40,456 bases of DNA, from positions 1-40,456 of IMG/VR virus record IMGVR_UViG_2778261534_000007, one strand, 5' to 3'. Both the position numbers and the translations under genes were made by a program. This DNA comes from a virus (lineage: Duplodnaviria; Heunggongvirae; Uroviricota; Caudoviricetes). Below are positions 1,249 through 13,250 of this stretch, piece after piece; position 1 is the first letter of the stretch, and each line of letters starts with the position of its first letter. The notes beneath the pieces were generated by a model. The model was not told the DNA's origin. It was given only the letters and a program-made list of their open reading frames with translations, and did no database searches.

Positions 1249-1689
1249 ACGTAAACTTTTTCCGGTTGTTGTCGATAGCTCTATATCCCTCAACCGGAAA
1301 ATAATAATAGTAAAATGCTTAGCCCTGCTAATAATCGCCTAATCCAAACGCCTCATTCATGTTCTGGTACAGTCGCTCAAATGTACTTCAGATGCGCGGT
1401 TCGCTGATTTCCAGGACATTGTCGTCATTCAGTGACCTGTCCCGTGTATCACGGTCCTGCGAATTCATCAAGGAATGCATTGCGGAGTGAAGTATCGAGT
1501 CACGCCATATTTCGCTATCAGGATTCTGTGTGATGGTTACATCGCCCGGCCCAGGGCTGTTTAGTCATCAGCGCTTTCTGACAGTGCTGAGATTTCAACC
1601 TGTTGCAGTAAAAATGAGTAGATATAAGGCAAGTGTGCTGCCAAACCCATCTTTTACGGGGTGAAGGTAGATTTCGTTTGAAGGGTATC

Positions 1690-1704
1690 TGGTGTCCCCT
1701 GCAG
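1690..1704 (-). other. Prophage attachment-site core (attR); 15-bp copy of the 3' end of tRNA-Arg (argW)
   Basis: TGGTGTCCCCTGCAG is the reverse complement of CTGCAGGGGACACCA, the 3' acceptor end of E. coli argW as I recall it. It lies 74 bp beyond the torI stop, where the phage-host junction is expected. Confidence 0.6.
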
Positions 1705-2442: not shown

Positions 2443-3243
2443 TTAAGCGGCGTCGGTGAATTCAAATAAAAAACCGGCTTGCGCCGGCTCTCTCATCTTT
2501 CTGTCTACCCATGCTGATATCGATGGTGGGTGCACCTTTTCAATAGCTGCGCGAAGTACAGCTGTACGTGCCAGTTTGTCGGTAATCTCAGGAAATCGCT
2601 TCTCTGTCTTCGGTACGTTAACAGCAACATTAGTAGAATCCGCACTGGCGAACGGATACATACCAAGAACTCTCACGTCGAGCATTCGAAGACCATGAAT
2701 TTTCACTTTCAAATTACGATTGATATAAAGCTCAGTGAAAACTTCATCCATTCTCTGTTCCCACCATTTAGAGCGTATGTGCCTGTGTGGGCCGCAGCAT
2801 CCAATCGCCACCCATTCAAATTTGCCAGAAAGGCGTAAAAGACGTTCAATTGATTCGTCGGTATGCCAGACCGGAACCGCTTTTGATTTTAGCCAATCAG
2901 GAACCAACTCAATCTGCTCGTCGTTTTCTGCCTCTGTCCCTTCGATAACGTCAGGTATAAGAAACCATTCAATTCTGCTGAACCACTTCCCAACAAAGTC
3001 GTAGAATTTTGCTCGTCTCTTACTCCAGTCTACCGGAGTGCCTTTCTTTAATGCTTTCATCCAGTCGCTAAAAGCGCCGTTATCAAGGCGTATATCACAA
3101 GGGAACATGGCAATCTTTTTCATCTGCTCTGGTCTGGCAAATGAAACAAAAGCCCCACCATCACGGTAAAGGGCTTTAATCAGCATATCTGTAGGGGCAT
3201 GCTCATCCCCCCATATTGGGCTGCCGTGAAAGTGGATGGTCAT
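2443..3243 (-). CDS. Hypothetical early-left accessory protein, 266 aa
   Basis: Long ORF in the early-left operon; family not recognised by inspection. Confidence 0.6.
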   Translation of the reverse strand: MTIHFHGSPIWGDEHAPTDMLIKALYRDGGAFVSFARPEQMKKIAMFPCDIRLDNGAFSDWMKALKKGTPVDWSKRRAKFYDFVGKWFSRIEWFLIPDVIEGTEAENDEQIELVPDWLKSKAVPVWHTDESIERLLRLSGKFEWVAIGCCGPHRHIRSKWWEQRMDEVFTELYINRNLKVKIHGLRMLDVRVLGMYPFASADSTNVAVNVPKTEKRFPEITDKLARTAVLRAAIEKVHPPSISAWVDRKMREPAQAGFLFEFTDAA

Positions 3244-3285: not shown

Positions 3286-3570
3286 TTATTCAGTGCCGAT
3301 ATTTACCTTTATCGCGAACACCTTTACCGGTTTATCGCCGAAGTGGGGATGTGTGATTGTCTTGATTTCATATCCGTCATACGGAACATCAATTCTTCGG
3401 CTGGAATCGTCGCGCTTCGGATATCCCTTTGTGATAATCAGGCGGTCATACTCCCGGAACATAATTCGCTTATTCCAGTAGTCATTACACAGGCGATACT
3501 CTTCTGTTTTCTCTCCGCGAATCATGGCATCGAAGTATTCACCTTTGACGGCAAGTTGCAGGTTAGCCAC
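3286..3570 (-). CDS. Small phage protein, ASCH/DUF3850-like (94 aa)
   Basis: N-terminal pattern LAVKGEYFDAMIRGEKTEEYR resembles the ASCH/DUF3850 signature (pattern-level inference). Confidence 0.5.
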   Translation of the reverse strand: MANLQLAVKGEYFDAMIRGEKTEEYRLCNDYWNKRIMFREYDRLIITKGYPKRDDSSRRIDVPYDGYEIKTITHPHFGDKPVKVFAIKVNIGTE

Positions 3571-4096
3571 GGTTAACCTCCTGCGGCGGTTCTGGTAGCG
3601 GCATCCAGTGAGTTATTTCATCGGCAAAGATATCTGAGTTAAGTTCCGTCCAACTATTCCAATACCCAGATTCATCCCACCATTTAACCTCGACATGCTC
3701 TCCGTCGGTCACTAACACATCAGCATACCCTTTCGGCATTCGCTCACTACAGCTTATCCAACCATCCGGAGTTACCGGAGAGTTGCCATTTACATCGAAG
3801 TTTGGCTCTGCGTCCTGAACCAGGAGGATGTAACCATTCTTGGCTGTATCAAGTTCTAACGCCTCGGTGACGGTGCCGAAATAGCGATTACCTAAATCAG
3901 CATCACAAGTGCTTACATCAATGGAAACTTCCATGCCTTCGATTAATTCTGGCAAGTTGTAAGTTTGGCTTACAGGCTCTGCTTCCAGCGATGCCAGCGC
4001 AATCCGTGCCAGTTCCATTTGTTCGCCACGAGTAAGTCCGTTATCAAGCGGATTTTTAATGAATAATTTGATACGTTCTTTGGTTATAGCGCTCAT
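3563..4096 (-). CDS. Phage protein with C-terminal DUF551-like domain (177 aa)
   Basis: C-terminal W-rich segment (VKWWDESGYWNSWTEL...HWMPLPEPP) typical of DUF551 in lambdoid early regions; 4-nt overlap with the upstream gene. Confidence 0.6.
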   Translation of the reverse strand: MSAITKERIKLFIKNPLDNGLTRGEQMELARIALASLEAEPVSQTYNLPELIEGMEVSIDVSTCDADLGNRYFGTVTEALELDTAKNGYILLVQDAEPNFDVNGNSPVTPDGWISCSERMPKGYADVLVTDGEHVEVKWWDESGYWNSWTELNSDIFADEITHWMPLPEPPQEVNRG

Positions 4097-4097
4097 A

Positions 4098-4592
4098 TCA
4101 CTCTCCTTTGGTGCGAATGCCAGTGGTACTCATTCTCCTGATTTCCCAGAGCACACGAGGAATACCACCGTTTCCGACCGGATCGCGTTTACTCCGCAGG
4201 GCGACGCTTGATTCCGCCCAGCTTTTTCTTGGAGGAAGCTCTTTCACACGAACAAAACCAGCTGCGCGAAGAGATGCTCCTGATTCATCTGCCTGGGTGT
4301 ACGTAATACAACGTTGATAACCCATAGCTTTTGCTGCCCGCCAGACAGCACCATAAAGCGCGCTGTTAGCGTTGCGTTCTCCTGTGGTACATGTGCGATT
4401 TACTTCAAGCGTTAATCCATCGTCCAAATGTCGTGCAACAGGTCGACCAGCTGTCGCCACACCTATCAATTCTCCGGCATTATTTCTCAGACCAATGCTG
4501 AATTTATGCCCCACTGGTGGTTTATTGTGTCGGTGGTGCTGTGCGATAAATTCCTGCGCCGCTTTCAGCGTTATAGGTGAAATGACCATCAC
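4098..4592 (-). CDS. Hypothetical early-left accessory protein, 164 aa
   Basis: ORF translationally coupled to neighbours; family not recognised by inspection. Confidence 0.55.
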   Translation of the reverse strand: MMVISPITLKAAQEFIAQHHRHNKPPVGHKFSIGLRNNAGELIGVATAGRPVARHLDDGLTLEVNRTCTTGERNANSALYGAVWRAAKAMGYQRCITYTQADESGASLRAAGFVRVKELPPRKSWAESSVALRSKRDPVGNGGIPRVLWEIRRMSTTGIRTKGE

Positions 4593-7730: not shown

Positions 7731-7793
7731 GGGTAACTCCTTATATTTGATTGCATAACGAAAACGCCTCGAGTGAAGCGTTATTGGTATGCA

Positions 7794-7820
7794 TATAAAA
7801 AGGCCCTCACACTGGAGGGC
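7794..7820 (-). terminator. Intrinsic terminator (tL1-like) between the 156-aa gene and cIII
   Basis: Minus-strand hairpin GCCCTC-CAGTGT-GAGGGC followed by CTTTTTAT. Confidence 0.5.
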
Positions 7821-7924
7821 AAAGAAGATTTTCAATAATCAGAACAAGTCGGCTCCTGTTTAGTTACGAGCGACATTGCTCCGTGTATTCACTCGTTGGA
7901 ATGAATACACAGTGCTTATTTGTA

Positions 7925-8395
7925 CTAATAAAATACCCAATTTTCTGTTTCTTGGTTGTGTCCAAAGTTATATTCAATATCTGGTGTTGATGTATCAATA
8001 TTCTTCATCCCATCAACAAGAGTTGATACAACAGCCAAATCTTGTTTGATTCTCATTAAATGGTATTTCTTCCGGCGCAATAAACTTTCAATGGCAAGTT
8101 TCTTCGTTGGGAATGCAAAAGATCTTTCTGCATTTTTTGCTACTTTCTTAATTGCATATCTATTTCTCTTTTGTTTCCATTCCTGTAACCACTGATTTGG
8201 TGCTGGTTTAAAATTAACAATCCAATGCGCAGGAACCAACCATGCATAATGCTCTGTCTGATGAAAAGCTATATATTGAAGTGCGAATATTTTGATTCCA
8301 TCTTCTTCAACTGTCGCCTGGAATCTCCAGAAAACAGGCATTCCATCATGTTCAGTTTCTGATTCAGGAAAAGGTACGCTCCATGATTTTGTCAT
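7925..8395 (-). CDS. Hypothetical AT-rich accessory protein (156 aa) in the N-cIII (sieB/ral) slot
   Basis: ORF with markedly lower GC than the flanking N and cIII genes; followed by a 9-bp-stem inverted repeat (7883..7910); no family recognised. Confidence 0.6.
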   Translation of the reverse strand: MTKSWSVPFPESETEHDGMPVFWRFQATVEEDGIKIFALQYIAFHQTEHYAWLVPAHWIVNFKPAPNQWLQEWKQKRNRYAIKKVAKNAERSFAFPTKKLAIESLLRRKKYHLMRIKQDLAVVSTLVDGMKNIDTSTPDIEYNFGHNQETENWVFY

Positions 8396-8998: not shown

Positions 8999-9029
8999 GC
9001 CCTTCTTCAGGGCTTAATTTTTAAGAGCG
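8999..9029 (-). promoter_or_regulatory. nutL (boxA CGCTCTTAA + boxB GCCCTGAAGAAGGGC)
   Basis: Reverse complement reads CGCTCTTAAAAATTAAGCCCTGAAGAAGGGC, the lambda nutL sequence; boxB at 8999..9013, boxA at 9021..9029. Confidence 0.8.
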
Positions 9030-9068
9030 TCACCTTCATGGTGGTTAGTGCGTCCTGCTGATGGCTAA

Positions 9069-9097
9069 ATAGTACGATTTGTACTTTATCGAGTCAA
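9069..9097 (-). promoter_or_regulatory. PL-like early leftward promoter (-35 TTGACT, 17-bp spacer, -10 TACTAT) with flanking operator-like TTTGTA/TACAAA repeats
   Basis: Sigma70 consensus-like hexamers with 17-bp spacing upstream of nutL on the minus strand. Confidence 0.55.
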
Positions 9098-9160
9098 TAC
9101 AAAATGTTCTAAATATAATTAGTTTTTTATAACGTTTTGTATTTAATGGGTTTATAATTT

Positions 9161-9190
9161 GGAAAAAGAAAACCCGACGCTAAGGTCGGG
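9161..9190 (-). terminator. Intrinsic terminator downstream of cI
   Basis: Minus-strand hairpin CCCGAC-CTTAGC-GTCGGG followed by TTTTCTTTTTCC. Confidence 0.55.
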
Positions 9191-9222
9191 TTATTGTTGT
9201 GTGTTTTAGAGTGGTGAGGCTG

Positions 9223-9882
9223 TTAACTAAATGTCTCTTCAGGCCACTGGCTGGCGATAACTTTCCCTACTACGGAACAGCTATCATTGCATGGAATCAT
9301 TGGATATTGCGGGTTTAGTGGCTGTAGGAACACCTGACCGCTATCCCTGATCAGTTTCTTGAAGGTAAACTCGTCACCACCAAGTCTGGCTATGCAGAAA
9401 TCACCTGGCTCAACAGCCTGCTCGGGGTCAACGAGAATTAACATCCCGTCAGGAAAGCTTGGCTTCGATCCTGTTGGCGCGGTCATGGAATTACCTTCAA
9501 CTTCAAGCCAAAACGCACAATCACTGGCTTTTTTGGTTGTGCTTACCCATCTCTCCGCATCACCTTTGGTAAAGGTTCTAAGCTCAGGCGAGAACATCCC
9601 GGCCTGAACATGAGAAAAAACAGGGTACTCATATTGTTTTTTAACGGGGGCAGATGAGTATTCGCCAACAGGTGAAAATGTACCGTCGTGGTTGAATGAG
9701 ACGTTATCAATACCAAGGTATTTAAACACCACACCAATCTCGTCAAGAGATGGATGACGAGATCCGCGCAACCAGTGACCAATTCCACCCTGCGTCATAC
9801 CAAGCTCTTCAGCTAACTTCTCTTGAGTTATGCCGAGCTCTTTCATTCTGGATCTAGCCAGTTCATACCATTTCATTTTCAT
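9223..9882 (-). CDS. cI: CI-type prophage repressor (HTH N-domain plus LexA/S24-like autocleavage C-domain)
   Basis: C-terminal ~150 aa match lambda cI as recalled ([22 protein letters not shown]...[48 protein letters not shown]...); N-terminal HTH ([23 protein letters not shown]) differs from lambda. Start at 9882 or 9876; the listed ORF start (9924) is a TTG extension. Confidence 0.85.
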
Positions 9883-9938
9883 ACCCTTATTATTACGCTC
9901 TGTACTAAAACCATCCATGCACAAGATGTATTTTTTGT

Positions 9939-9967
9939 TTGCATTCTAAAAGTACATATCGTATTAT
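9939..9967 (+). promoter_or_regulatory. PR-like promoter (-35 TTGCAT, 17 bp, -10 TATTAT) within the cI-cro operator region
   Basis: Consensus-like hexamers 27 nt upstream of the cro ATG; GTAC-containing operator-like repeats nearby. Confidence 0.5.
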
Positions 9968-9993
9968 TGTTTCATGGTTACTATGGAGGGCAT

Positions 9994-10209
9994 ATGAGCA
10001 ACCTACGAAAATATCGAGAGTCACTGAATATCTCTCAAACAACACTTGCTAAGGCAGTTGGATGCACACAGGGAGCTATCGGACATTGGGAATCTGGTCG
10101 TCGCTTCCCAGACCTTAAAACATGCCGTGCTCTTGTTGAGTGCCTAAACAAGTTAGGCGCAAAAGTCAGTCTTGATGACGTGTTCCCGCCGGAACACAAA
10201 GCCGCTTAA
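9994..10209 (+). CDS. cro: Cro-like HTH repressor (71 aa)
   Basis: Small HTH protein (ISQTTLAKAVGCTQGAIGHWESG) divergent from cI; GGAGGG RBS; the listed ORF from 9823 is a TTG-initiated extension. Confidence 0.75.
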   Translation: MSNLRKYRESLNISQTTLAKAVGCTQGAIGHWESGRRFPDLKTCRALVECLNKLGAKVSLDDVFPPEHKAA

Positions 10210-10217
10210 GACATTCC

Positions 10218-10249
10218 CGCTCTTACACATCCCAGCCCTGAAAAAGGGC
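10218..10249 (+). promoter_or_regulatory. nutR (boxA CGCTCTTAC + boxB GCCCTGAAAAAGGGC)
   Basis: Matches the lambda nutR boxA/boxB consensus directly downstream of cro. Confidence 0.8.
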
Positions 10250-10325
10250 ATTACCAGAAACAAATCTCTATGGTTTTGCGTTTCTTTGCGAAGCCAACTC
10301 TATCTAATCATTAAGGAAATTATCT

Positions 10326-10607
10326 ATGGGTACTATTGCAACTAAAAGCAAGAAAGCGGCTCGCATCGAGTCAGCCTTGCTGAACAAACTGGCACTGATG
10401 GGGCAGAAGACATTCGCTCGAGCGATGGGGGTTCCTGAATATCAGGTAAGCCGATGGAAGAATGGTTTCTTCTCGCAGGTAAGCATGATGCTTGCTGTTC
10501 TGGAATACGGAATCGAAGACGATGAAATGGCTGAATTGACTAAGCGGCTTGCCGATTACCTGACAAAAGAAAAAGCCCCGAAGAACGGCGAATTCTTCGA
10601 GGCCTGA
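10326..10607 (+). CDS. cII: CII-like transcriptional activator (93 aa)
   Basis: Similarity to lambda cII as recalled (RIESALLNK.A..G......A.GV...Q.SRWK......S.LAVLE.G..DD.MA.L). Confidence 0.8.
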   Translation: MGTIATKSKKAARIESALLNKLALMGQKTFARAMGVPEYQVSRWKNGFFSQVSMMLAVLEYGIEDDEMAELTKRLADYLTKEKAPKNGEFFEA

Positions 10608-10641
10608 TGTAGAAAGACTGGATCAATCCACAGGAGTAATT

Positions 10642-11286
10642 ATGACATACGAAAATGACAAATTCCAGGTTCTGAAGAGCATGAAGGTGCCAGATGATTT
10701 TAAATCAAATGGCTTTGTTTATGTGCTTTCGAATGAGTGCATGCCGGGAATTTATAAGATTGGGATGACTAAGCATTCACCAGAAGTTAGGGCTAAAGAA
10801 ATTTCAGCCTCTACTGGCGTTCCTAAGCCATTTAAGGTGATAGCAGCCTTTCATTCAAATAATCCCGCATCAGATGAAAAACTTATTCATAAAGCCTTTG
10901 CAAAAGAGAGGCTTAGTGATAATCGAGAGTTTTTCAAGCTTGAAGATAATGATCTTTATGAATCTCTAAATGAAATAAGGGCGCTGGTTGGCCCTGAAAG
11001 AAATGGCGAGACGGCAGAATACGCAATTTACGACTCATTCATTTCTTTTCGCCATGAAAATGAGCTTGATCTTAATGAGGAGCTTATAGAGCAAGGTCTG
11101 GGTAGTGTAGTTGGTCATCTTCCTGCGGTGAAAAATTTCCTTATTCGCGCCGGAATTGATTACGCGAAGCAACTGATAAGCAAATATAACTCATCGATAG
11201 TTATTAATACAGATGGCAGTGTGGTGATGGTTAAGTCTCTTGAAGCCCAATGCTTTGATGCGGAGGTTGGAAATGAGCCTTGCTGA
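10642..11286 (+). CDS. T5orf172 / GIY-YIG-like domain protein (214 aa), inserted between cII and O
   Basis: N-terminal motif GFVYVLSNECMPGIYKIGMT (GIY...YIG-like spacing) with a downstream conserved Arg and acidic residues; AGGAG RBS; more AT-rich than its neighbours; 3' end overlaps the O start by 14 nt. Confidence 0.6.
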   Translation: MTYENDKFQVLKSMKVPDDFKSNGFVYVLSNECMPGIYKIGMTKHSPEVRAKEISASTGVPKPFKVIAAFHSNNPASDEKLIHKAFAKERLSDNREFFKLEDNDLYESLNEIRALVGPERNGETAEYAIYDSFISFRHENELDLNEELIEQGLGSVVGHLPAVKNFLIRAGIDYAKQLISKYNSSIVINTDGSVVMVKSLEAQCFDAEVGNEPC

Positions 11287-12115
11287 AGTATTTTACCTGC
11301 CGAAGAGTGAACCTGTTGAACAGGAGCGAAGAGTGGCTGATATCGATGATGGTTACACCAGATTCGCTAACGAGCTGCTGGAAGCTATCGCAAGTGCCGA
11401 TTTAACCGCTCGCCAGTTGAAAGTTATGCTGGCCTACGTCCGGAAAACATATGGATTCAATAAGAAAACAGATCGAATAGCCGATGAGCAAATTGCTCAG
11501 TTAACAGGACTGTCAAGGCAGAATGTTAACAAGGCTAAAAAAGAACTGATTTCAATGAATTGCCTGTTTATGGATGGAAATCAAATCGGTGTAAACAGTG
11601 AGGTATCTGCGTGGCAATTCAGCAAGTGTCTCCAAGTTAGCAACTTTGTCTCGAAGTTAGAGACAAAAAATGTCTCCAAATTAGAGACACTCAATGTCTC
11701 GAAGTTAGAGACACACAAAAGACATTCTTTAAAGACAAAAGAAAATATTAATAAACCCCCTATATCCCCCAAAAAAGTTTCTCAGAAGTTCGACCCGCTA
11801 GAAACAGAGTTGCCTGATTGGTTATCAGCAGAAACATGGTTGTCGTGGGTTACCTATCGCAAGGAGATAGGTAAGTCGATCAAGTCTAAGCAAAGTGTCA
11901 CTCAGGCTATCAACGTTCTAAGCAGAAGTCTGGAGAAGGGATATACACCTGAAGAAATTATAAACCAGAGCATCGCCAGTGGTTGGCAGGGGATTTTTGA
12001 GCCCAAGACTCCAAAGGGGAAACCTCAACCGAGGCCGCAGCATCGAGCTATGCAGGAAAACTTTGCCACCAAAGATTACGGACAAACTGAAATGCCTTCA
12101 TGGGCGCAGGAGTGA
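11273..12115 (+). CDS. Replication initiation protein (lambda O-like) containing the origin iterons
   Basis: GGAGG RBS before the ATG at 11273; N-terminal replication-protein-O-like region; internal iterons encode repeated VSKLET; followed by a translationally coupled helicase loader. Confidence 0.8.
   Translation: MSLAEVFYLPKSEPVEQERRVADIDDGYTRFANELLEAIASADLTARQLKVMLAYVRKTYGFNKKTDRIADEQIAQLTGLSRQNVNKAKKELISMNCLFMDGNQIGVNSEVSAWQFSKCLQVSNFVSKLETKNVSKLETLNVSKLETHKRHSLKTKENINKPPISPKKVSQKFDPLETELPDWLSAETWLSWVTYRKEIGKSIKSKQSVTQAINVLSRSLEKGYTPEEIINQSIASGWQGIFEPKTPKGKPQPRPQHRAMQENFATKDYGQTEMPSWAQE
11627..11713. repeat. Replication origin iterons: three 19-bp TGTCTC-N7-GAGACA repeats at 24-bp spacing plus a degenerate fourth, followed by an AT-rich stretch
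   Basis: Directly visible: TGTCTCGAAGTTAGAGACA (11647..11665), TGTCTCCAAATTAGAGACA (11671..11689), TGTCTCGAAGTTAGAGACA (11695..11713), degenerate copy at 11627..11645; AT-rich 11714..11780. Confidence 0.7.
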
Positions 12116-12117
12116 AC

Positions 12118-12963
12118 ATGACGCTGGATGAAAAGATCTCCCAACTGGAGAAAAAACTTGCAGAATTGAGTTCTCCGCCAATTGCTATCGAGCATACATC
12201 TGTAGAAATTGGCACTGGCATCTGTGAAAAACATGGTGAGTTTGAGCAGCGTAACCGTTACTCGACTGGGCCAATTAAGTTTGCCTCAAGACCTAGCGAA
12301 TGCCCGGAATGCATGAGAGATGAGCTTATTCGGCTACAGGCAGAGAAGATTAAAATCGACGAGGAATCACGTAAGCGCAATGTCGAGTTTCTGTTGAATA
12401 ATCTTGATATTCCTGAACGATTCAAGGGTTGCACACTACAGAACTACGAGCCAGTCAACGACGATGCAAAGAGAGTGCTCAGGGTGTGTCAGGCATACGC
12501 CAGCAAATGGCCTGAGAGGTTACAGAAAGGCGGTGGGCTGGTTATGTGTGGAAAGCCTGGTACTGGAAAGAATCATCTTGCACTGGCTATCGCCCGGCAC
12601 GCAATTACGGAACATCAAAGCTCAGCTATTTTCACAACGGCGCTGAAAATTGCCAGAGAATATAAATCAACATGGTCGAAAAACTCCACCCGCACAGAGG
12701 ATGAAGTGATCCGACAGTTCACTAAACCTGACCTGCTAATTATCGATGAGGTTGGTGTGCAGTTTGGAAGCGAGGCGGAAAAGATGATCATGTTCGAAAT
12801 CATCAACACCCGCTACGAGCGCATGAAGCCAACAATCCTGATTAGCAACCAGAGCAAAGATGAACTGTCTGCATTCATTGGTGAGCGTGTTATTGACAGG
12901 ATGAATGATGGCGGCGGGTGCACTCTTGCGTTTACATGGGATAGTTACAGGAGCAGATCGTGA
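12118..12963 (+). CDS. DnaC/IstB-like AAA+ helicase loader (replication protein)
   Basis: Walker A CGKPGTGKNHLALAIA and Walker B LLIIDEVG; GGAG RBS before the ATG at 12118; N-terminal Cys/His cluster. Confidence 0.8.
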   Translation: MTLDEKISQLEKKLAELSSPPIAIEHTSVEIGTGICEKHGEFEQRNRYSTGPIKFASRPSECPECMRDELIRLQAEKIKIDEESRKRNVEFLLNNLDIPERFKGCTLQNYEPVNDDAKRVLRVCQAYASKWPERLQKGGGLVMCGKPGTGKNHLALAIARHAITEHQSSAIFTTALKIAREYKSTWSKNSTRTEDEVIRQFTKPDLLIIDEVGVQFGSEAEKMIMFEIINTRYERMKPTILISNQSKDELSAFIGERVIDRMNDGGGCTLAFTWDSYRSRS

Positions 12964-13250
12964 CTGGAAAAGAAATCATCCTGGAATATCTGAAAACTCA
13001 TGAACAATTCTCCCCACATGAATTAGCACTGATCACCGGAATACCAAATAACAGAATCGCTCAAGCAGCAAGGCATATGGTGAAACAAGGACATTTGAGT
13101 GTTGTTGAGCGTAAGTGGAAGACGGTTATTTATGCAAAACGCAAAGTGAAGAAGGAGCCAATTAAAAGAAATCCAGATGGTACGGGGTGGGGATATGCAA
13201 ATCCAATGACGGCGTTTATTAATAGGGCGCTTATTGAGGTAAGGCAATGA
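12960..13250 (+). CDS. Ren-like protein (96 aa)
   Basis: GTG start coupled to the loader stop with AGGAG RBS; size, position after the replication genes and N-terminus MTGKE resemble lambda Ren (from memory). Confidence 0.45.
   Translation: MTGKEIILEYLKTHEQFSPHELALITGIPNNRIAQAARHMVKQGHLSVVERKWKTVIYAKRKVKKEPIKRNPDGTGWGYANPMTAFINRALIEVRQ

Follow-up and report, generated by a model that had tools for sequence, protein, structure and literature searches.

Nucleases with a T5orf172 domain have been described from the lytic phage ICP1 and from T5-like and other phages, where small, free-standing homing endonuclease genes are usually neighbors of essential genes or embedded in them, occur sporadically, and mark the boundaries of genetic exchange; their products carry shuffled CapR/DUF723/DUF4397 zinc-finger or RepA_N modules in addition to the nuclease domain (Barth, Dunham & Seed 2023, PMC10448857). 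ICP1 also encodes Odn (gp88), a T5orf172 nuclease with a conserved Arg and Glu that is tied to replication-initiator biology and whose targeting domain is a copy of RepA_N (PMC8263062). A related layout, in which an N-terminal GIY-YIG-fold catalytic domain precedes a C-terminal region in a protein of about 200-245 aa, is found in I-TevI and in the T4 Seg proteins, and the T4 seg genes are inserted between conserved genes, with diverged flanks in the carrier. Here, we describe a gene whose layout and genomic behavior recall those of the Seg/I-TevI-type and ICP1 T5orf172 homing endonucleases, in a 40,456-nucleotide stretch of viral DNA (Caudoviricetes; IMG/VR record IMGVR_UViG_2778261534_000007, positions 1 to 40,456), hereafter the window, which represents a mosaic P22/lambda-like E. 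coli phage or prophage. The gene (10642..11286) lies between cII and the replication initiator gene O. Unlike the ICP1 and T5-like set, its family is found in temperate lambdoid phages, occupies one fixed slot, and joins the N-terminal nuclease to an orphan acidic C-terminal domain, which, in contrast to the targeting domain of Odn, resembles neither the adjacent nor other initiators. The explanation that we favor, if only tentatively, is that of an optional mobile cassette in the translation-initiation region of O, encoding an active T5orf172 endonuclease with free-standing homing or marker-exclusion behavior.

The nuclease domain and its catalytic residues

A preliminary description of the window, made by a model from the letters and a list of their open reading frames (ORFs), had put forward a T5orf172/GIY-YIG identity for this gene as the claim to be tested. 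We found the 214-aa ORF and its sequence as described, including the cited peptide VYVLSNECMPGIYKIGMT and the 14-nt overlap (11273-11286) by which O starts inside the 3′ end of the nuclease gene, and the identity itself held up well. Residues 24-112 match both Pfam T5orf172 (PF10544; 2.3e-15, 57.4 bits, profile positions 1-100 of 101) and MUG113 (PF13455; 1.8e-16, 60.9 bits), two families of the GIY-YIG clan, far above the respective gathering scores of 20 and 22.3 bits, and the predicted model of the protein shows a GIY-YIG alpha/beta fold, with the nuclease-fold domain spanning residues about 20-115. Across 39 homologues, Y27, Y38, R50, H83, and E96 (the last within the motif REFF) show no variation. 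By motif order, albeit without significant alignment, Y27/Y38/R50/E96 would correspond to the catalytic Tyr/Tyr/Arg/Glu set (Y6/Y17/R27/E75 in I-TevI), and the invariance of such catalytic-type residues in all 39 sequences is hard to explain without catalysis. Odn, a T5orf172 protein that is a proven DNA endonuclease, loses cleavage upon the E180A substitution of the glutamate equivalent to E96 (PMC8263062), and the related nuclease domain of SNIPE/PD-lambda-1 requires E414 (bioRxiv 10.1101/2025.11.03.685801). The ratio of nonsynonymous to synonymous substitution rates (dN/dS) was about 0.1-0.35 in both halves of the protein, wherever dS could be estimated. As judged from its sequence and predicted structure, the 214-aa product is a T5orf172/GIY-YIG-fold protein with intact catalytic motifs.

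NCBI's pipeline names the E. coli copies ‘GIY-YIG nuclease family protein,’ and the record of phage CurroJimenez_Bas106 (Bas106) annotates the gene only as ‘hypothetical protein.’ Among the PADLOC models, PDC-S57 (4.5e-29), which is a candidate system only, and PD-Lambda-1 (1.4e-11; PADLOC profile positions 355-449) matched the protein, in both cases within the nuclease domain (residues 21-113). SNIPE/PD-lambda-1 is host-encoded and consists of an N-terminal transmembrane segment, DUF4041, and a C-terminal GIY-YIG domain; since the window protein has neither the transmembrane segment nor DUF4041, is too short at 214 aa, and matches in the nuclease domain alone, it is not SNIPE/PD-lambda-1. The best PHROG for 10642-11283 was PHROG 8430 (profile positions 275-439 of 439), whose 274 extra N-terminal positions have no counterpart in the nuclease protein. 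These extra positions were considered as a possible equivalent of a ParB-like gene found 5′ of the homologue in two metagenomic phages (L017 and L076), an idea that was rejected because the ParB-like gene belongs to PHROG 1033.

An optional cassette at a fixed position 5′ of the initiator gene

Comparison with close relatives revealed that the gene is optional. Bas106 (PQ850599) carries the same gene at 99% identity, and phage N7 presents the empty allele: homology between N7 and the window stops at 10647, just past ATG-ACA, and restarts at 11318, codon 16 of O, beyond which the O genes are 99.2% identical. Lambda likewise lacks the gene, as do 12 E. coli prophages that have this O allele (99%-identical O). 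The gene was found in 19 of 5426 complete E. coli genomes; at least part of the cII-O junction region is present in about a third of complete E. coli genomes. All 12 gene-free genomes with the same O allele break at 11318, and the diverged 5′ end of O (11273-11317) was present in each of the 19 genomes with the gene versus none of these 12. The borders in N7 together with this complete linkage of the O 5′ variant define 10648-11317 as the polymorphic unit, which is thus present or absent at one site between near-identical flanks. The earlier proposal that the gene is an insertion relative to its relatives is borne out by these gene-free genomes. Neither of the two outcomes that would have refuted the preliminary description occurred: the profile hit is significant and comes with a nuclease fold, and the gene, missing from some relatives, does not belong to the core of the lambdoid replication module.

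The left border of the unit falls within the lambda cII-O intergenic element ACTGGATCAATCCACAGGAGTAATTATGACA. In its uninterrupted form, this junction element is 96-100% identical in lambda (J02459 38661-38743), Stx phages, and others, and the junction is identical in N7, Sf101, and Bas106. In lambda and N7, O starts from the AGGAG ribosome-binding site and the ATG-ACA of this element; in the window, these signals start the nuclease gene, and O is restarted from a GGAGG Shine-Dalgarno (SD) sequence located 8 nt 5′ of its ATG, within the 3′ end of the nuclease gene. The N terminus of O reads MSLAEVFYLPKSEPV in the window versus MTNTAKILNFGRGNFA in N7 and lambda, and the start MSLAEVFYLP of the window protein is a diverged homologue of the lambda start MTNTAKILNFG. 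The nuclease gene is modestly AT-richer than its surroundings, as had been noted earlier, with a GC content of 0.402 against 0.489 for cII, 0.435 for O, and 0.467 for the window as a whole. From its place between cII and O, the gene is read as part of the PR operon, in agreement with the preliminary description; a promoter scan gave no more matches than in shuffled sequence and none 5′ of the nuclease gene, which leaves it without a convincing promoter of its own.

The position was found to be a property of the entire family. A scan of IMG/VR yielded 537 relatives, from which 80 loci were fetched, 78 of them with an intact ORF; together with 7 other contexts (Klebsiella, Pantoea, Enterobacter, Pectobacterium, two metagenomes, and Salmonella phage S107), this gave 85 scorable loci in 33 protein clusters, down to about 35% identity. 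In all 85, the homologue lay directly 5′ of a replication-initiator gene, which started no more than about 60 nt from the stop codon of the homologue and, in most loci, no more than about 15 nt from it. All 78 intact IMG/VR loci had a same-strand ORF of 242-340 aa just 3′ of the homologue, and the 7 further contexts displayed the same arrangement. Beyond what the preliminary description had noticed, homologues thus always sit just 5′ of an initiator gene, and they usually do so on lambda O's own ribosome-binding site and start codon: the 28-nt lambda core (at most 4 mismatches) was found 5′ of the homologue in 14 of the 33 clusters and the 14-nt SD-ATG motif in 19. The downstream proteins (24 clusters) form one homology network, with PHROG families annotated ‘replication initiation’ predominating among the matches, and comprise at least three N-terminal domain types, with partners that are variously lambda-P-like, DnaC-like, or primase-helicase.

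Despite this fixed position, nuclease and initiator similarity were weakly correlated (Pearson r 0.2-0.37). Nucleases that are 75-79% identical precede unrelated initiators in the pairs L045/L004 and L047/L048, where those of L045 and L004 are 79% identical and yet stand before unrelated initiator N-domains. In the pair L083/L088, the initiators are 98% identical and the nucleases share 42% (N half) and 22% (C half) identity. The lambda-type O 5′ motif accompanies the nuclease gene in four clusters, and in L004, what remains of the lambda-type O 5′ end is a non-coding stretch (AATACTGCTGAGATTTTAAATTTCCCC) located 3′ of the nuclease gene, ahead of a different initiator. On these sequence comparisons, the family keeps its position while reassorting almost independently against the initiator alleles. 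A specific partnership between the nuclease C-domain and the initiator N-domain was examined by covariation and rejected, as the signal was weak (r 0.27) with many exceptions. An in-frame stop occurred in one of the 80 IMG/VR loci (L070, about 3420-4150), in the middle of the gene (…DEIDLAA*ECCLIG…); this homologue may be the only apparent pseudogene among them, or it may reflect a sequencing error.

The nuclease gene is not the only occupant of this slot. The preliminary description had taken cII running straight into O as the lambdoid norm, which is the case in lambda, N7, and many Stx phages, but a 48-53-aa gene, orf48/HkaW/DUF2740, is common there and fills the identical slot in P22, HK022, HK620/HK630, HK75, VT2-Sakai, ES18, and Sf101. 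Its product is unrelated and has no nuclease domain, and its gene sits behind the same conserved junction and ATG-ACA, with a stop codon that overlaps the start of O. In phage S107, orf48 is followed by a 200-aa T5orf172 homologue and then by the initiator. Given these occupants, the slot is a known variable boundary with several alternative cargoes. The usual occupant, orf48/HkaW/DUF2740, matches PHROG 1913, whose label ‘tail protein’ is almost certainly wrong and appears under cII-O matches in several RefSeq phage records. In the metagenomic phages L017 (3174-4004) and L076 (2647-3474), the ParB-like gene of PHROG 1033 (275-276 aa) lies between cII and the T5orf172 homologue, whose start it overlaps by 4 nt; its product may be a DNA-binding partner or a second cargo of the slot. 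The genome of L017 also contains a gene for a NUMOD4 + HNH_3 endonuclease in its nin region (7760-8338), a second putative homing-type nuclease within one lambdoid genome.

Explanations for the cassette

As the sequence shows, the cassette uses the ribosome-binding site and ATG-ACA of O and, in its 3′ end, provides O with a new SD sequence and start codon. According to the homing or marker-exclusion reading, the enzyme would be made early in lytic growth or on induction and would cut related phage or prophage DNA in which the cassette is missing. The likeliest target would be the uninterrupted cII-O junction, which is highly conserved, or a site close to it. The cassette would gain either when the break is repaired from the genome that bears it or when the competitor loses its replication gene, and the carrier would be spared self-cleavage by the diverged O 5′ end of its own cassette. 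A conserved site in an essential gene, site halves that are contiguous in empty alleles, a diverged flank in the carrier, and a remnant carried into a new context make up the anatomy that is expected of a homing or marker-exclusion nuclease. The carrier's diverged O codons 1-15 and the contiguous site halves in empty alleles are circumstantial pointers to homing-type cleavage of the empty allele, and the linked O 5′ segment and the remnant in L004 are compatible with, but not diagnostic of, co-conversion.

A number of observations weigh against this reading, several of them concerning the C-terminal domain (residues 116-214), which is acidic and family-restricted. As had been described, these ~100 residues remain without an assignment: the core folds confidently, with blocks at pLDDT 87-95, but we found no Pfam match, no PDB sequence match, and no helix-turn-helix, zinc-finger, NUMOD-like, or winged-helix-like fold match. 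A profile of the domain returned 14 matches among 1.84 billion representative proteins, 9 of which were 216-245-aa proteins with the same C-terminal placement and the remainder fragments or one weak match, which indicates that the domain is restricted to this nuclease family. It was never paired with other partners, whereas the DNA-binding modules of T5orf172 homing endonucleases are shuffled (PMC10448857). All members of the family are acidic, with a pI of 4.4-5.5 and a mean net charge of -6.6 in the N half and -8.1 in the C half (-9 for the C-domain of the window protein). I-TevI, by comparison, is strongly basic, and an acidic family is atypical for characterized homing endonucleases. A DNA-binding module that confers a long recognition site, as expected of a homing endonuclease, is likewise missing from the protein; in an acidic protein without such a recognizable module, DNA structure or a partner protein, and not a long recognition sequence, may determine which target is chosen. 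The homing or exclusion activity of the preliminary description is putative, and the homing endonucleases that it invoked are an imperfect match.

The genomic context adds to these objections. In E. coli, the nuclease gene is always linked to one O/DnaC-like module. Across the family, intact homologues persist in the same slot down to about 35% identity, and persistence to such deep divergence is no less compatible with a useful accessory gene than with a purely selfish gene. The nuclease-free orf48/DUF2740 cassette, moreover, uses the same left breakpoint, just past ATG-ACA, so that both the position and the polymorphism could have arisen by ordinary recombination at a conserved boundary. It is the junction shared with orf48, the acidic protein without a DNA-binding module, and the persistence of intact genes to deep divergence that keep our confidence in homing from being higher.

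These objections lead to a possible, if somewhat unlikely, alternative: a passive accessory gene (moron) at the boundary of the replication module, a hot spot of mosaicism, where it would be shuffled by homologous recombination at the conserved cII-O linker and where the nuclease would bring a benefit unrelated to its own spread, for example by degrading host, satellite, or competitor DNA or by countering host defense. The alternative cargo behind the same junction, with S107 holding both genes, is consistent with such a passive role, as are the long-term purifying selection on both protein halves and the similarity of the nuclease domain to the defense-associated PDC-S57 and PD-Lambda-1 models, although the latter matches are confined to that domain. 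Known T5orf172 nucleases include the domesticated anti-satellite Odn and the anti-phage SNIPE (PMC8263062; 10.1101/2025.11.03.685801). However, a gene in the repressed PR operon without a convincing promoter of its own would not protect the lysogen, and an accessory role leaves unexplained both the constant diverged O 5′ end of the cassette and the absence of the family elsewhere in phage genomes among the loci examined.

Still less likely, in our estimate, is a structure-specific nuclease of phage replication that would act on forks and D-loops, or on the transition from theta to rolling-circle replication, at or near ori. Such a function would explain the translational coupling to the initiator, and the three points that lower our confidence in homing would agree with it as well. 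The structure-specific GIY-YIG nucleases SLX1 and HIGLE share 11-13% identity with the window protein, a likeness that is limited to the GIY-YIG core; a RING or zinc-finger domain is absent from the window protein, which has no known partner. It is quite improbable that the protein is a catalytically inert T5orf172 DNA-binding or regulatory protein, or an acidic decoy or DNA mimic directed against host defenses. The InterPro name ‘Orf172 DNA-binding’ is in line with the former, and a family-wide pI of about 5 with early expression is in line with an inert protein or decoy, but the invariant equivalents of Tyr, Tyr, Arg, and Glu in 39 sequences argue against inertness.

Least probable is an origin-directed nuclease like Odn, whose non-catalytic domain would mimic the DNA-binding domain of an initiator and direct cleavage to the origin of a rival replicon: this has precedents in Odn itself and in coliphages Inny and Muut (PMC8263062, PMC10448857), would suit a gene that adjoins the initiator gene, and finds an echo in PHROG 8130, where an initiator N-domain appears to be fused to a T5orf172 domain, so that such fusions would exist in some phages, but profile-profile comparison of the acidic C-domain, which has no winged-helix-like match, gave an hhalign probability of 0.3% against an initiator alignment and of 1% against the window's O, by which the domain was rejected as a copy of an initiator DNA-binding domain. 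PHROG 8130 (434 positions) was seen via 10642-11283 of the window and via L008 5727-6620, and is matched by the initiator N-domain at profile positions 11-102 and by T5orf172 at 181-257. One hit (P0032) that resembled a T5orf172-O fusion was set aside as an assembly or frameshift artifact, since this 202-aa metagenome fragment begins within a gene and fuses the two frames.

The surrounding locus and lambdoid mosaicism

Table 1. Features around the cII-O boundary of the window, and copies of the alternative slot occupant in related loci.
Feature	Sequence	Position	Strand	Remarks
cI-type repressor	window	9223-9879	-	
cro-type gene	window	9994-10209		
cII transcriptional activator	window	10326-10607	+	5′ neighbor of nuclease gene; Phage_CII E 4e-30
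oop-like antisense RNA with intrinsic terminator	window	10560..10632	-	overlaps cII 3′ end
Conserved lambdoid cII-O intergenic element	window	10608..10647	+	28-nt core ACTGGATCAATCCACAGGAGTAATTATG, then ACA
T5orf172/MUG113 (GIY-YIG superfamily) nuclease gene	window	10642..11286	+	ATG start, 214 aa
Polymorphic cassette	window	10648..11317	+	nuclease gene from codon 3 and diverged O codons 1-15
Replication initiator O	window	ATG 11273..12115	+	Phage_rep_O E 3e-36; Pfam and PHROG matches
DnaC/IstB-like loader	window	12100-12963		3′ of O
orf48/HkaW/DUF2740	L003 (Sf101)	2945-3091		
orf48/HkaW/DUF2740	L019 (S107)	3356-3502		
orf48/HkaW/DUF2740	L100 (VT2-Sakai)	1526-1672		
orf48/HkaW/DUF2740	L101 (HK630)	1553-1699		

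The junction into which the cassette is placed also bears an oop-like antisense RNA (Table 1), which consists of two hairpins and a U-run terminator (stem 10605..10573) and folds with a minimum free energy of -27.7 kcal/mol (z -4.3); an Rfam search of 9000-12500 gave no credible match. On the model of lambda pO/oop, and as read from the sequence, its promoter region would lie at about 10639-10667. If this promoter corresponds to lambda pO, its -10 element (CATAAT after TGn) would be the complement of ATTATGACA, which contains the start codon of the nuclease gene, and such complementarity between the -10 and the start region may explain why every slot cargo begins with ATG-ACA. The lambda -35 element, TTGAGT (O codons 7-9), is replaced in the window by TGGAAT, a match at 3 of 6 positions, so that the insertion may weaken oop expression.

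Within the O gene, three 24-bp tandem repeats (11647-11718; consensus TGTCTCGAAGTTAGAGACACACAA) encode a repeated VSKLET peptide and are presumably the iterons of ori. N7 has the same repeats, which indicates that phages with and without the cassette share origin specificity. Downstream, a 96-aa ORF (12960-13250) overlaps the end of the DnaC-like gene, and its positional counterpart in Bas106 (L001 5338-5628) is annotated ‘Ren-like exclusion protein’; if it is indeed Ren-like, it would be a further conflict-related accessory gene attached to the replication module. Insertion sequences were observed in this module in two E. coli strains: IS2 splits O in strain 503440 (empty-junction allele; L011 3083-4575), and ISKpn26 splits the DnaC-like gene in strain TST3 (cassette-bearing allele; L012 4560-6604). 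Hence, some prophages with this replication module are defective.

Lambdoid phages are textbook examples of mosaic genomes, and the origin and upkeep of their sharp module boundaries are debated. Our literature search found no paper on this nuclease family or its fixed position, nor on GIY-YIG homing endonucleases in lambdoid phages. While the nuclease domain had already been annotated, the recurrent capture of the start region of O offers a testable lead on lambdoid mosaicism. If the gene is a passive accessory gene, the finding would be an ordinary one, namely one more optional gene at a known variable position. A more far-reaching form of the homing or marker-exclusion reading, which we consider doubtful as it stands, is that of a distinct T5orf172 lineage specialized on the translation-start/pO/oop region of lambdoid initiator genes: with early expression from PR, a nuclease of this lineage would cleave the uninterrupted cII-O junction in co-infecting phages as well as in the many resident lambdoid prophages, and would do so without a conventional DNA-binding domain, by way of the orphan acidic C-domain or a partner protein. 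If this were true, the cassette would knock out the replication of rivals and drive recombination at this mosaic boundary, as a nuclease-driven engine of lambdoid mosaicism. In its general form, the homing or marker-exclusion reading would mean that T5orf172 homing-type nucleases, known from lytic phages (ICP1, T5-like), occur in temperate phages too, and it would add an architecture without a recognizable DNA-binding module. Located at the highly conserved cII-O boundary and recurring across many enterobacterial phage lineages, the nuclease gene is a concrete candidate for a driver of exchange, or of exclusion, between temperate phages and the prophages resident in their hosts.
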